A DNA stretch of 64,000 nt from Shigella phage Silverhawkium. Shown piece by piece: positions 39,492-62,181 of this stretch (positions are counted from its first letter, which is position 1; every line of letters begins with the position of its first letter). The DNA lies in the sequence record MK562505. One strand, written 5' to 3'. A program made the position numbers and the translations under genes. The notes under the pieces were generated by a model. It was given only the letters and a program-made list of their open reading frames with translations. It made no database searches and was not told the DNA's origin.

Positions 39492-40976
39492 TTACCAATC
39501 GTAACGTTCAGACATAACAGCTTTAAGCATTACGCTAATTGGGTCAAACTTCTCACCACCAAGTAGTGCTTTTAAGGTGGCTGGAGAGAAGCCAGATACC
39601 ATAGCTACTCCGTTATCCTTTACAGATACTTCGCAGTTTCCACCACGATTAGCTAGATACCAGAAAACTAACTGAGGCATCTCATAACCAGACTCTTTAT
39701 ACTTACGACGAATTTCTTCGAAGTTAGTATTACCTCGCTGACCATCAACCTGATTGAACTGCATATCAGAGAATATAATAAGCTTACTTGGCATTGCTTC
39801 TTGAGTCAAGTTATTTTTAACACCAATCTCAAGGATTCGGTCAAAAGCTGCTTGAATGTTTGTTGAACCATACTCAACATTCTTCATAACTTGTCGAATA
39901 CGAGTCTCCAGAGAGCCACTCAGGGAGATAAAGTATGGTCTAGTAGAGTAAACCATTAACTCATCTTTGAAGCATCCTGTGTTGCGTTCTGCTACGTATA
40001 GGGCAAGTGATACACCAATATCTAAAGCAGTTACTGAGCCGTGTTTCTCCCAAGTCATAGAGTCAGATACATCAGCCATGCAAAGGATGTTTTCACCATC
40101 TCTCATCCAGTTTGGCAAAGCTTTCCATTGCTCATTAGCAACATCTGCTCGACCATACCGTACAGACTTCGTAATGTCATAAGGGTAGACAGCACCAGCA
40201 TTGATTTTCTCAGTACCTTCTGACAAAGCCTTTACATATTCTGCATAACGTTCTCCACCTTTTCTGGTGAAAAGCTTCTGGTAACGTGCAGCAGCAAGTG
40301 AAGGTAGTTTGCTATAGTCAATCTCACCAAATGAGTTTGCAGAGATTTTCTGCTCAACTGTATCTGATAGCACTGACAGCATCAGTCGGTACTCTTTCTG
40401 GCTTAGATTTGCAAACTTGCAAAAACGTTTTACAAAATCCATATGACGCTTTTTAACCCTTGGGAGCCACTTAGCAGCCAATGCTGAAGTATCTGGGTTA
40501 AGCAGACCTTGCTCAATATGCTTGAAAGCATCTGTCTCATAACGAGTACCCACAAAGATTTTGAAGTCATCAAAACGACCTAGTTCAGAAATCTTATCCA
40601 TAATACGGAGTACTTGGAACTCGTCAATCATATTTGTTCGGATTGCTTCGGTCATTACAGTCCTGAATGCCTTACGTTCGCCCATACCCTCTCGTGCATC
40701 TCGCATATGAAGGAGGATTCGAACCGCTACATCAACATCCTCTCGCAGAGCCTTGTAAAACAAGTTTGGTAGTGCCTCTGTAGAGTTGCGGCTAGAGCCA
40801 GCAGCCTTATAGAAATCTACCAGTGCAGACATTGAGGACAGGTGGTTTACAGCACCATTCTCAGTCAAACCAGCGTGTAAGTTCGCATGGTTAAATAATT
40901 CGCTCATAATATTCTCTCTTCTCTCATTGTTGTTGGTTAGACAGACTCTAGAGTAACCAATAAAGTCTGTCAACAC
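39492..40976 (-). CDS. von Willebrand factor A (vWA) domain protein, about 490 aa; Ro60/TROVE-like architecture is a hypothesis
   Basis: C-terminal MIDAS-type motif DVSDSM (DxSxS); long helical N-terminal region; function not assignable from sequence. Confidence 0.6.
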   Translation of the reverse strand: MLTDFIGYSRVCLTNNNERRENIMSELFNHANLHAGLTENGAVNHLSSMSALVDFYKAAGSSRNSTEALPNLFYKALREDVDVAVRILLHMRDAREGMGERKAFRTVMTEAIRTNMIDEFQVLRIMDKISELGRFDDFKIFVGTRYETDAFKHIEQGLLNPDTSALAAKWLPRVKKRHMDFVKRFCKFANLSQKEYRLMLSVLSDTVEQKISANSFGEIDYSKLPSLAAARYQKLFTRKGGERYAEYVKALSEGTEKINAGAVYPYDITKSVRYGRADVANEQWKALPNWMRDGENILCMADVSDSMTWEKHGSVTALDIGVSLALYVAERNTGCFKDELMVYSTRPYFISLSGSLETRIRQVMKNVEYGSTNIQAAFDRILEIGVKNNLTQEAMPSKLIIFSDMQFNQVDGQRGNTNFEEIRRKYKESGYEMPQLVFWYLANRGGNCEVSVKDNGVAMVSGFSPATLKALLGGEKFDPISVMLKAVMSERYDW

Positions 40977-57610: not shown

Positions 57611-57994
57611 TTAGTTAATTTCAAAGATTGTTACATATCCATCACTACCAACAACCTGAGATACTCCAGCTTTTACCACGTTATAACCCATGTTGTCAAG
57701 ATGATAAACTGCATCTTCATAGCCATATTTGCAACCTTGATAACGGCGCTTGTCGCAACGAATTATGGTCTTCCCACGTCCTGCCAGTGCATGGATAATA
57801 GCTTTTTCTCCTGAGAGTGTACCATCTAACATTGTAGCGGTATAGTGATTTATTTTGTTGCCATTCACATCATACTTAAAATTGTATGCGTGGACAACAA
57901 TTATTTTGCCTTTTAAGTTTTCACTCATAGATTTTTCTAGTGCATCACGAAAGTTTTCTTTGTTGATGAATTTAGGCATATAATATTTTTTCAT
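57611..57994 (-). CDS. hypothetical protein (127 aa)
   Basis: ORF preceded by conserved cassette and promoter. Confidence 0.45.
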   Translation of the reverse strand: MKKYYMPKFINKENFRDALEKSMSENLKGKIIVVHAYNFKYDVNGNKINHYTATMLDGTLSGEKAIIHALAGRGKTIIRCDKRRYQGCKYGYEDAVYHLDNMGYNVVKAGVSQVVGSDGYVTIFEIN

Positions 57995-58043
57995 TTTAGA
58001 TTCTCCAGTTTAGGATAGTTGGGAGTTGTTCCCGTTGATGCAA

Positions 58044-58071: not shown

Positions 58072-58246
58072 AGAAATTTTTTAAAAATATTTTTGGCATG
58101 TTGTGAATGAAACGGGTGCGTACACGTAGCACTAAACAGAAAACTGGTCAAGAATTATTTTTCAATCCGCTACAAATTTTTCTCTTGACTTTTGGGAGGA
58201 AGGGGAGTAAGAGGGGATGGTGGGGCTGGCTACCTATTGCGCTCTA

Positions 58247-58430
58247 CCTGCACAAATTGAAAATAAATTTCCTTGCCCGACCTTGGCGGGGTCTGCACGT
58301 TTTGAAAATGAAAAAACTCTTTGGAGTTGACCTGCACAATTCTAAAATGAATTTTCCCTTTGGAGATTGTGGAGATGTGTCTACAGATTTATGTGTAGCT
58401 TTTTATCTGCACGTTTTAGAAATAAAAAAG
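58247..58430. repeat. four direct repeats of about 24 bp, YCTGCAC(A/G)WTT..AAAAT(R)AA
   Basis: Copies start near 58247, 58292, 58331, 58406; ORF-track ORF 58107..58460 is probably an artefact of these repeats. Confidence 0.6.
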
Positions 58431-58460
58431 CCCTCCTTACCTCATTTTTTAAAATGGTAA
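58405..58460 (-). terminator. probable rho-independent terminator downstream of macro-domain gene
   Basis: Imperfect hairpin AAGCCTTCTTTACC...GGTAAGGAGGGCTT followed by TTTTTTATTT on minus strand. Confidence 0.4.
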
Positions 58461-58496
58461 AGAAGGCTTTATACACTGTCCACTTATGGACGAGAG

Positions 58497-59291
58497 TTAG
58501 TTACGTGCTTCAACAAAGGTAATACTCTTATCTGTGATAATTACATCAACTTCTTCATGGTTATCTGCAAGAATGTATACGCTTGCATCTACACCAAATG
58601 TGATAGCTCTGCAAGAATGTCCCTGTAACCTGTGGGTAACTTGAGCGTTACTCTTAGAGTACTCCTCAACCGGAGGGTTACTTTTATGTACCTTACCTTT
58701 GCGTTTCACCCGAAGGGTAACTTGCTCATTGTCTAATAGTGCAACACCATCGAAGAATTGTGGTTCGCTGTAGTTCTTCCAACCCTTAACCGGACTAGTC
58801 AACTGACTATACATCTTATCTTCATAGATATACATGTACACATCAACGTCCTTCATTGTCTGGTTAATGATTGACAGCACAGCCATTCCATCAAGACCAC
58901 CAATCCCTGCACCAAGCATTGGCAAGCCAACCTTCTTAAGTTGGTTAACTTTACAGTAATTGTTCAGACGCTGCAAAGCTTCTTCTAAAGCATTGTAACG
59001 TGCATCTTTACCAGTGATAACCTGAGTGTAAAGGTTTGCAATTCGACCTTGTTTTAATCGAGCTACAGAGATATTCCCAAGCATAATGTGCATTGGTTTA
59101 TGGTCTTCTCCACCAACAACTCCATAAACTTCTGAATCAGTTTCATAAGCTTTTGGATATCGTTTAGAAATGGTTGCTGCAATACCTGCACCCATCAGAT
59201 TCATACAGTTACATCCGTGACCAATGATATCAAACTTCTTGTTATCAAAAGCTTCAAAGATATCACCTTTAATGATTTTCACGATACCCAT
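58497..59291 (-). CDS. macro-domain protein (TARG1/OARD1-like ADP-ribose-binding fold) with C-terminal extension
   Basis: N-terminal KGDIFEAF...DIIGHGCNCMNLMGAGIAATI resembles macro-domain signature; 264 aa. Confidence 0.55.
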   Translation of the reverse strand: MGIVKIIKGDIFEAFDNKKFDIIGHGCNCMNLMGAGIAATISKRYPKAYETDSEVYGVVGGEDHKPMHIMLGNISVARLKQGRIANLYTQVITGKDARYNALEEALQRLNNYCKVNQLKKVGLPMLGAGIGGLDGMAVLSIINQTMKDVDVYMYIYEDKMYSQLTSPVKGWKNYSEPQFFDGVALLDNEQVTLRVKRKGKVHKSNPPVEEYSKSNAQVTHRLQGHSCRAITFGVDASVYILADNHEEVDVIITDKSITFVEARN

Positions 59292-59492
59292 TTAATACTT
59301 CTCCCATGATTCTTTGTCTTCAGAAGGTTTTACACGTTGACCTTCATGGTCTACCCAGATTCCACCACAACCTTCACACAGTGTAGGCATTGCATAACCT
59401 GCCTTGAAATCATCCTCTGTGATGAGACCTTTTAAGTCACCTGTATCACGTCCAAACATTTCTATAGAGCAATCTTTGCAGAAATCAGCCAT
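59292..59492 (-). CDS. small zinc-ribbon protein (66 aa)
   Basis: CKDC ... CEGC pairs of CxxC; start abuts macro-domain gene. Confidence 0.4.
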   Translation of the reverse strand: MADFCKDCSIEMFGRDTGDLKGLITEDDFKAGYAMPTLCEGCGGIWVDHEGQRVKPSEDKESWEKY

Positions 59493-60960: not shown

Positions 60961-60988
60961 AAAATGAAAAAGGCTCCCGAAGGAGCCT
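60961..60988 (-). terminator. rho-independent terminator
   Basis: Hairpin GGCTCC-ttcg-GGAGCC followed by TTTTTCATTTT on minus strand. Confidence 0.65.
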
Positions 60989-60999
60989 CTATATTAACC

Positions 61000-61469: not shown

Positions 61470-61487
61470 TCTCTCTCTCTCTCTCTC
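61470..61487. repeat. dinucleotide microsatellite (TC)9 / (GA)9
   Basis: Perfect repeat between stop of 61486..62181 and start of 61000..61464. Confidence 0.9.
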
Positions 61488-62181
61488 AGTTTTTCACTAG
61501 CATTGTTTTAATTTGTGGAAGGATTCTTTCAACCTTTGCCACGTTCTTTACTGTATCTTCTATAAAGCATACTACATCATAATAGGGGAGTATGCAAGAC
61601 TGAAGCATACGAACTTTCAAACTTTCTGCACTGATTGTATTATCACCAAAACCACGCATGAAGAGAAGAAAGTCACTGTCCACATTATCATTCAGGAACA
61701 GATGAGTCACAACCCTTTGTGATTCACCACGAGCAGTTAAGAACCCTATATCCGCATTCTGTGATATCCCACACAGGATATTAAAAACATAAGTTGGTTT
61801 AGCCCTGTGAGAGTCTACCAAGTTGGTATACTGTGAGTAAGTACCATCATCTAATAATGTTGCATTAAGCCCTTTATCAAAGCTTGTAAGTACTCCGTCA
61901 ATGTCTGCCAGAATCATCTTACGCTTTGCTTCTAAATCCTTTGCAACTAAGATAAGACTGTTACGGCCTACATACACAGTTTTACCAGTTAGCAAATCTT
62001 GACAAGGAACCTTTGTCATCGTCGAATGAAAGTCTTCAAATTTACACTCAACATACCTTGCTGTATCTGCAAAGTCAGCCTTAGCAACATCTGACCAACT
62101 TGCAGAACTGATATCTAAATCCAGTGGACTGATATCGTAAGCGTGACACAGAACCTTATCAAATTGTTTTGATTCGCTCAT
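61486..62181 (-). CDS. HAD-superfamily phosphatase-like protein
   Basis: Motif I ILADIDGVLT (DxDG), motif II-like GFLTARGES; 231 aa. Confidence 0.5.
   Translation of the reverse strand: MSESKQFDKVLCHAYDISPLDLDISSASWSDVAKADFADTARYVECKFEDFHSTMTKVPCQDLLTGKTVYVGRNSLILVAKDLEAKRKMILADIDGVLTSFDKGLNATLLDDGTYSQYTNLVDSHRAKPTYVFNILCGISQNADIGFLTARGESQRVVTHLFLNDNVDSDFLLFMRGFGDNTISAESLKVRMLQSCILPYYDVVCFIEDTVKNVAKVERILPQIKTMLVKN

Follow-up and report, generated by a model that had tools for sequence, protein, structure and literature searches.

A transposon screen of phage T4 on a host carrying the toxin-antitoxin defense system DarTG2 yielded a single gene, tk.4, which was named adfM, and a clean tk.4 knockout rendered T4 sensitive to DarTG2 (bioRxiv 10.1101/2025.11.20.689424). 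In vitro, PhiKZ gp104, a more DarG-like phage macrodomain with a lysine in an FPTK motif, strips DNA of the ADP-ribose added by DarT2, and it also relieves the toxicity of DarT2 (PMC13309987). The bacterial chromosomal enzyme SCO6735 of Streptomyces coelicolor has no Lys/Asp pair, carries Gln85 at the lysine position, and hydrolyzes thymidine-linked ADP-ribose on DNA (PMC9411070). Here we describe a relative of these proteins from Shigella phage Silverhawkium (record MK562505), a Felix O1-like phage of the Ounavirinae; the stretch of 64,000 nucleotides that was analyzed is referred to below as the window. The gene is located on the minus strand at positions 58497..59291, stop codon included, and its 264-aa product, which matches phrog_335 over residues 1 to 263 (E value [E] of 9.2e-98), is composed of a macrodomain (residues 1 to 157; 58821..59291) and an orphan C-terminal domain (residues 158 to 264; 58500..58820). 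Its best-supported function is that of a counter-defense enzyme, an ADP-ribosyl hydrolase that would erase DarT2-type ADP-ribosylation of DNA, a reading to which we give slightly less than an even chance.

The Silverhawkium protein is 38% identical over 137 aa to T4 Tk.4 (AdfM, NP_049723, 155 aa, annotated as "phosphatase, A1pp motif") in a BLASTP comparison (E 8e-20). Both proteins have phrog_335 as their best match, both are encoded by early-region phage genes, and the motifs KGD, HGCNC, MGxG, NLYTQ, and P-x-[IL]-GAGIG are common to the two. Tk.4 is a bare macrodomain, whereas the window protein adds a 107-aa C-terminal domain. An earlier note on this DNA, prepared from the letters alone, had suggested counter-defense against ADP-ribosylating systems of the host, and this idea is well founded because Tk.4, at 38% identity, is needed for resistance to DarTG2; the anti-DarTG2 phenotype has been demonstrated for T4 alone. 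A relative of the macrodomain is encoded in about 2,784 phage records and the full two-domain protein (at least 80% covered) in 257, and essentially every matched Felix O1-like genome carries the gene (257 records). Relatives in GenBank are already labelled "macro domain-containing protein" or "phosphatase"; the macro gene is of a known kind, and the fused C-terminal domain is the uncharacterized part.

Residues 1 to ~157 form a macrodomain of the ALC1/TARG1/DarG-like class, an assignment made because matches to Pfam, to PDB structures by profile, to an AlphaFold model, and to DarG models agree. The earlier note had placed both this open reading frame (ORF) and a 66-aa CxxC...CxxC ORF beside it (59292..59492, also on the minus strand) exactly, and the macrodomain-like signature that it had seen in the N-terminal ~150 residues, comprising GDIFE (residues 9 to 13) and GHGCNCMNLMGAGIA (residues 24 to 38), is well past chance. 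Pfam Macro (PF01661) matches residues 25 to 141 with 30.1 bits against a gathering threshold of 22 (E 4.9e-7), and a profile of 15 family members searched against the PDB retrieves TARG1 (E 3.4e-16), Mycobacterium tuberculosis DarG (1.2e-14), the BT1257-like structure 2AFC (5.7e-13), Poa1p (7.8e-13), SCO6735 (2.3e-11), and Thermus aquaticus DarG (2.4e-11). The AlphaFold model of the 264-aa protein has a mean predicted local distance difference test score (pLDDT) of 78.8 and values of 83 to 95 over most of the macro core, and the three-layer α/β/α arrangement of macrodomains is present, so that the macro fold proposed in the note is supported by both model and profile. DarG is the sole match in NCBIfam (56.9 bits, E 2.1e-15) as well as among 5027 PADLOC defense models (E 8.7e-16), in each case over the macro half only.

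The label "TARG1-like" given in the note is apt for the fold, but it does not hold for the chemistry. Pairwise, profile, and multiple alignments all place Gln90 (in NLYTQ) in the column of TARG1 Lys84 and DarG Lys80 and Gly131 in that of TARG1 Asp125; TARG1 also has Ser35 where the window protein has Asn28. Membership in the TARG1 group was rejected on the replacement of the Lys84/Asp125 dyad. Membership in the DarG group (M. tuberculosis 5M3I, T. aquaticus 5M31) was rejected as well: the catalytic lysine (Lys80, in FPTK), which the DarG-like PhiKZ gp104 shares, is replaced by Gln90, the score is far under the cutoff (56.9 bits against 250 for NF048014, with model positions 2 to 154 of 338 matched), and the protein has no DarT-binding domain. 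Nor does a darT gene adjoin the locus, in which the 66-aa gene lies upstream and a terminator downstream and both neighboring genes are phage genes. What is conserved instead are the catalytic residues of the SCO6735 type. In HMMER and MAFFT alignments, Asn28 shares a column with DarG Asn22 and PhiKZ AdfM Asn23, and His25 lies three residues earlier. Two family alignments (A1 and A5) show no variation at Gln90, Asn28, Gly34, Gly36, Pro124, and Gly127, and A1 shows none at His25, Gly26, or Gly129, positions that are conserved to 90% or more in A5. The putative ADP-ribose-binding elements, G9-D10, G34-A-G36-I-A38, and G127-A-G129-I-G-G, are likewise conserved in the family, and the macrodomain as a whole can be followed through the motifs GD (residues 9 and 10), HGCNC (25 to 29), GAGIA (34 to 38), NLYTQ (86 to 90), and PMLGAGIGG (124 to 132).

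Judged from these alignments, the active site is of the His-Asn-Gln type of SCO6735 and Tk.4, with H25, N28, and Q90 as the predicted counterparts of H24, N27, and Q85 in SCO6735 (PDB 5E3B, ALC1-like fold), an equivalence that is transitive only. In SCO6735, Q85A abolishes the hydrolysis of thymidine-linked ADP-ribose on DNA and N27S nearly does so, while H24Y inactivates the enzyme by disrupting its structure, as seen by circular dichroism, so that a catalytic role of His24 is putative (PMC9411070). Mutation of Asn23 lowers the activity of PhiKZ AdfM (PMC13309987). The window protein looks catalytically competent because Asn28, Gln90, the glycine loops, Pro124, and His25 are invariant or nearly so. 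SCO6735 differs from it in having no C-terminal domain, and the lysines that position DNA in SCO6735, K34 and K89, are not conserved: the window protein has Ala35, and its Lys95 is offset by one. The conservation of all SCO6735-type catalytic residues also bears on the idea that the protein is a noncatalytic binder of ADP-ribose derivatives, acting as a sponge for immune signals such as the products of Thoeris; given this invariance, and with hydrolases as the closest structures at much higher Z scores, we regard such a role as highly improbable.

As a DarT2 counter-defense enzyme, the protein would act as an early-expressed ADP-ribosyl hydrolase of a Gln-type subgroup that it would form with SCO6735 and Tk.4. 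A DarT2-type toxin of the host would ADP-ribosylate thymidines in single-stranded phage DNA and thereby block replication. The macrodomain may bind the ADP-ribose through Asp10, the GAGIA loop, and the GAGIGG loop, with Asn28 and Gln90 positioning the distal ribose, and hydrolysis of the N-glycosidic link would restore thymidine and release free ADP-ribose. The C-terminal domain could serve as an accessory targeting or partner-binding module, for which the toxin, single-stranded DNA, and the replisome are candidate partners, and the 66-aa gene would be cotranscribed and probably translationally coupled without being a required partner. A related macro gene, in IMG/VR locus L097, is two genes away from a NADAR gene (AdfN-like, the anti-DarT1 type), and T4 likewise carries both the macro and the NADAR type. 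Macrodomain erasers, exemplified by T4 AdfM and PhiKZ AdfM, are emerging as a general reply of phages to ADP-ribosylating immunity. If the assignment is true, one could predict DarTG2 resistance for a large group of phages used therapeutically against Salmonella, E. coli, and Citrobacter, and the Felix O1-like proteins would represent a natural two-domain variant in which a fast-diverging C-terminal domain may mark an arms-race interface.

Several points weigh against this assignment. For the Felix O1-type proteins themselves, the presumed activity is derived from sequence and homologues, and the support from T4 is genetic only, was published as a preprint, and was obtained with a 38%-identical protein that has no C-terminal domain. 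The catalytic lysine of DarG and PhiKZ AdfM is missing, and an activity on DNA is suggested by analogy with SCO6735, in which the probable equivalence of Gln90 with Gln85 runs through the TARG1 and DarG alignments and not through a direct alignment with 5E3B. We found no literature on Felix O1-like phages meeting or resisting DarTG2, and the main text of the PhageMaP paper on Bas63 does not mention the macro gene. Finally, related macro genes recur beside NAD+ salvage genes, which hints at another substrate or at least leaves room for one.

One different substrate would be protein or RNA rather than DNA, with the modification made by another ADP-ribosyltransferase of a host defense system or toxin, such as one that targets mRNA or protein, or by a phage or host enzyme of the Sir2 type. 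TARG1 and SCO6735, the closest characterized structures, also remove ADP-ribose from proteins, defenses that ADP-ribosylate RNA and their reversal by macrodomains have been documented in the literature, and the macro genes of IMG/VR loci L092 and L097 are near phage SIR2 genes. We nevertheless consider this unlikely, as the only known phenotype of the subfamily is specific for DarTG2 and no ADP-ribosyltransferase or Sir2 gene adjoins the macro gene in the window, where the immediate neighbors are small proteins without a match in Pfam, NCBIfam, or PADLOC.

The placement of related macro genes in NAD+/ADP-ribose islands could alternatively mean that the macrodomain is a helper in NAD+ salvage that supplies free ADP-ribose (ADPR) to the NARP1 pathway and so aids the phage against NAD+-depleting defenses. 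In Vibrio phage K354 (L014, 4169-7122), a macro gene of the His/Asn/Gln type is sandwiched between Prs/Adps-like and Nampt/Namat-like genes with overlapping ends. In the IMG/VR loci L092/L093, L097, and L099, a Nampt-like gene ends at, or no more than ~40 nucleotides (nt) from, the macro start; around the Nampt and macro genes, L092 (2047-8342) has Nudix, HAD, and SIR2 genes by Pfam and an Adps-like gene by tblastn, and L097 (584-5772) has SIR2, Nampt, macro, NAD synthase, and NADAR genes. Altogether, NAD+/ADP-ribose genes lie within 4 to 5 kb of the macro gene in 7 of 53 diverse macro loci and in 2 of 7 loci found by searching with the K354 macro protein; the sampled loci include near-duplicates and do not count as independent. 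The NARP1 pair (Adps plus Namat), defined in Bas63, rebuilds NAD+ from ADP-ribose, Felix O1-like phages carry it, and ADPR-cyclic phosphate arises as a breakdown product of ADP-ribose pyrophosphate (ADPR-PP) (bioRxiv 10.1101/2024.02.11.579819). In Mordin, ~8.2 kb separate NARP1 from the macro gene downstream of it, and both occupy one strand of the same early region; in Silverhawkium it would fall past coordinate 64000. Hydrolysis of ADPR-cyclic phosphate would give phosphorylated ADP-ribose of the kind that Poa1p-like macrodomains dephosphorylate. The fold and the HxCNC motif of the window macrodomain resemble those of Poa1p, the yeast ADP-ribose-1''-phosphate phosphatase (PDB 6LFQ), with which Bacteroides BT1257 (2AFC/2FG1) is grouped among the closest known structures; Poa1p has LFTSS at the NLYTQ segment, and a Tk.4-Poa1p alignment indicates that the glutamine is apparently a serine there. 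The salvage helper might thus dephosphorylate ADP-ribose-1''-phosphate derived from ADPR-cyclic phosphate, or it might free ADPR from O-acetyl-ADPR or from ADP-ribosylated macromolecules.

We regard the salvage role, the chief rival of the counter-defense reading, as doubtful. In the lineage of the window, the macro gene and NARP1 are not neighbors, the demonstrated phenotype of Tk.4 is anti-DarTG2, and we know of no NARP1 in T4, although Tk.4 is present. NADAR genes occur in the same islands, so the clustering may reflect only the shared theme of ADP-ribosylation conflict. The preprint on NARP1 is silent about any macro gene, and a pair of genes was enough for the effect that it describes (bioRxiv 10.1101/2024.02.11.579819). 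A more far-reaching version, in which the His/Asn/Gln-type macrodomain is a third enzyme of NAD+ reconstitution that returns dead-end or bound ADPR while the C-terminal domain adds binding of a host factor, as an independently arisen DarG-like architecture, seems to us rather unlikely. The recurrent company of Nampt/Namat, Adps, NAD synthase, Nudix, Sir2, and NADAR genes suggests that ADP-ribose erasure and NAD+ regeneration form one phage module.

The C-terminal domain is what sets the Felix O1-like proteins apart from Tk.4 and SCO6735. The earlier note had found no recognizable relatives of this extension, and profile and hidden Markov model (HMM) searches bear this out: there are none outside this phage group and three metagenomic relatives (L007-L009). 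Searched against 1.84 billion representative proteins, a profile built from nine C-terminal sequences gave five matches, four of them to its own family or fragments thereof; the fifth, to an NHL-like repeat protein (P0020), was dismissed as spurious. A local C-terminal HMM matches all 27 Felix O1-like IMG/VR loci and the three metagenomic relatives, and it matches none of 60 other macro loci; the 260-aa Kolesnikvirus protein is also unmatched. The C-terminal extensions of other long macro proteins (L076, L095, and Kolesnikvirus) were considered as relatives and rejected, having no detectable kinship to that of the window. The domain has no fold match, and alone it has no PADLOC match. It is modelled with moderate confidence (pLDDT of 65) and is mainly composed of β-strands, with six strands and one helix. 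With an isoelectric point (pI) of 7.1, it is neither acidic nor basic, and an acidic DNA mimic like the DarG C terminus is unsupported by charge, which is itself weak evidence.

The C-terminal domain diverges much faster than the macrodomain to which it is fused: identities to HP1, ST11, and L007 are 64%, 46%, and 33% for the C-terminal domain and 92%, 77%, and 50% for the macrodomain. Most neighboring genes are 84 to 94% identical to those of HP1, and by identity the segment encoding the C-terminal domain is among the fastest-evolving of the region. An arms race at a partner-binding interface would explain such fast divergence beside a conserved catalytic domain, and relaxed constraint would explain it equally well. 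We infer an accessory targeting or binding role for the domain. DarG also joins a macrodomain to a second domain, which binds DarT; this parallel is an analogy only because the window C-terminal domain has no sequence similarity to the DarT-binding domain.

The 66-aa protein encoded beside the macro gene is acidic (pI 4.4), matches phrog_2210 (E 6.9e-40), and has CxxC motifs at C5/C8 and C39/C42, with all four cysteines invariant in seven homologues from five phage groups. It has no assignment in Pfam, PDB, NCBIfam, or PADLOC: its Pfam match to Zn_ribbon_TFIIB, at 15.1 bits, is under the gathering threshold of 22, and its best PDB match has an E value of 0.6. The phrog_2210 zinc-ribbon family is found in 835 phage records, with invariant MADFC-xx-CS ... 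CEGCG ... VD. The earlier note had the 66-aa gene start one nucleotide after the end of the macro ORF. The two genes do abut, but in the opposite order: read along the minus strand, the zinc-ribbon gene comes first (5'), and its stop codon TAA (59294..59292) abuts the ATG of the macro gene (59291..59289). A Shine-Dalgarno sequence of the macro gene, GGGAGA (59300..59305, minus strand), read directly from the sequence, lies inside the zinc-ribbon gene, near its 3' end. The stop-abuts-ATG layout is kept in 27 of 27 Felix O1-like loci and in L007.

This layout is what could be expected of a two-component system in which the zinc ribbon and the macro protein act jointly, for instance with the zinc ribbon recognizing the nucleic acid or target, the more so since both genes lie in one terminator-bounded unit. 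The distribution of the zinc ribbon argues otherwise. Homologues without an adjacent macro gene are present in rV5 (ORF26), T5-like phages (T5.062, bas33_0115), PaMx43, and Bhz59, Pseudomonas phages included; conversely, none of 53 other macro loci has the zinc-ribbon gene, and Kolesnikvirus, a genus of the Ounavirinae, and L008 have a long macro protein without it. T5, though carrying T5.062, is sensitive to DarTG2 (bioRxiv 10.1101/2025.11.20.689424). The histories of the two genes are also discordant: the window zinc ribbon is 94% identical to those of ST11 (Felixounavirus) and L007 and 73% identical to that of HP1 (Mooglevirus), against 77%, 50%, and 92% for the macrodomain. Among IMG/VR loci, including L016-L042, the zinc ribbon falls into two allele classes (~70 to 74% and 91 to 97%), and either macro type occurs with each. 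These discordant similarities, and the allele classes that pair with either macro type, show that the two genes recombine and assort independently, with a mosaic breakpoint at or near their junction. We therefore rejected the zinc ribbon as a conserved partner of the macro protein and consider joint action quite improbable. Of the coupling asserted in the earlier note, the gene layout stands and the functional part does not; the genes are coupled in expression but not demonstrably in function, and the zinc-ribbon gene is a syntenic neighbor.

Two further observations concern such small zinc proteins. The T5 homologue, T5.062 (L013, 14981-15181, minus strand), is 66% identical to the window protein and is located in the tRNA region beside tRNA-His, and Bas33 has its homologue in the same place. 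In the metagenomic locus L009 (3805-4029), a different 74-aa CPLC...CTGC protein overlaps the start of the macro gene of the distant two-domain relative; it looks, by eye, like a restriction-alleviation protein of the Lar family and is not homologous to the window zinc ribbon, so that a small zinc protein upstream of a macro gene occurs twice.

The macro gene sits in the early rII-proximal region, and the 4-kb stretch around it is 81 to 85% identical to Salmonella phage S.Kent 1-2-1, Mordin, Michonne, HP1, and phiSUSP1, among which Mordin, Michonne, and HP1 are Mooglevirus phages. It is the last gene of a unit that runs in the order i-spanin, o-spanin, four small ORFs, zinc ribbon, and macro, with the same layout in Mordin. 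A hairpin resembling an intrinsic terminator (58419..58469, minus strand), with a 14-bp stem, a 14-nt loop, and a U-tract, begins 28 nt past the macro stop codon; its predicted RNA fold has an energy of -30.4 kcal/mol (z of -3.96), equalled by none of 200 shuffles. The pattern scanner for terminators, with a loop limit of 8 nt, missed this hairpin. A second terminator-like hairpin, found by the scan upstream of the spanin genes (60969..60990, minus strand), probably marks the upstream boundary of the spanin-to-macro transcription unit, and Mordin has an annotated terminator at the equivalent place, ahead of an Rz-like spanin.

Downstream of the macro gene, a noncoding stretch of ~500 bp, 79% conserved with Mordin, contains four copies of a 25- to 34-nt repeat (58246-58440). 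All four, read along the minus strand, end in an (A/T)-rich segment plus GTGCAG(G), and one overlaps the terminator hairpin. Mordin has an annotated 62-aa ORF (gp014) on the opposite strand at these repeats, but its repetitive translation suggests that it is not a real gene. Further along, CAACTATCCTAAACTGGAGAATCTAAAATG is found at 57992-58021 (minus strand), ahead of the ORF at 57611..57994. The same ~30-nt block (CAACAATCCTAAAC plus TGGAGAATCTAAAATG) is annotated in Mordin as a 14-bp "repeat_region" and a ribosome binding site ahead of 10 or more annotated sites, of which four were read; the block is a common cassette for translation initiation or a promoter-proximal one.

On the other side of the unit, the 231-aa ORF at 61486-62181 (minus strand) is annotated in relatives as a HAD-like "polynucleotide kinase", and the precomputed match of its homologues is a faint one to HAD_PNKP. 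The ORF itself has no Pfam match at an E value of 0.001, and it is 94% identical to the HP1 version and 58% identical to that of the Felixounavirus ST11. A link of the macro gene to tRNA repair through this gene was considered and set aside, having no support except proximity. Farther away in the window, a 494-aa protein with DUF2828 and DUF7788 domains is encoded at 39492-40976 (minus strand), and its Mordin counterpart precedes the tRNA cluster and bears the annotation of a vWA "RNA-binding protein". By position alone, the 494-aa protein is probably the counterpart of Bas63 gp130, reported in the PhageMaP work as a Ro60-like counter of the ppl defense system.

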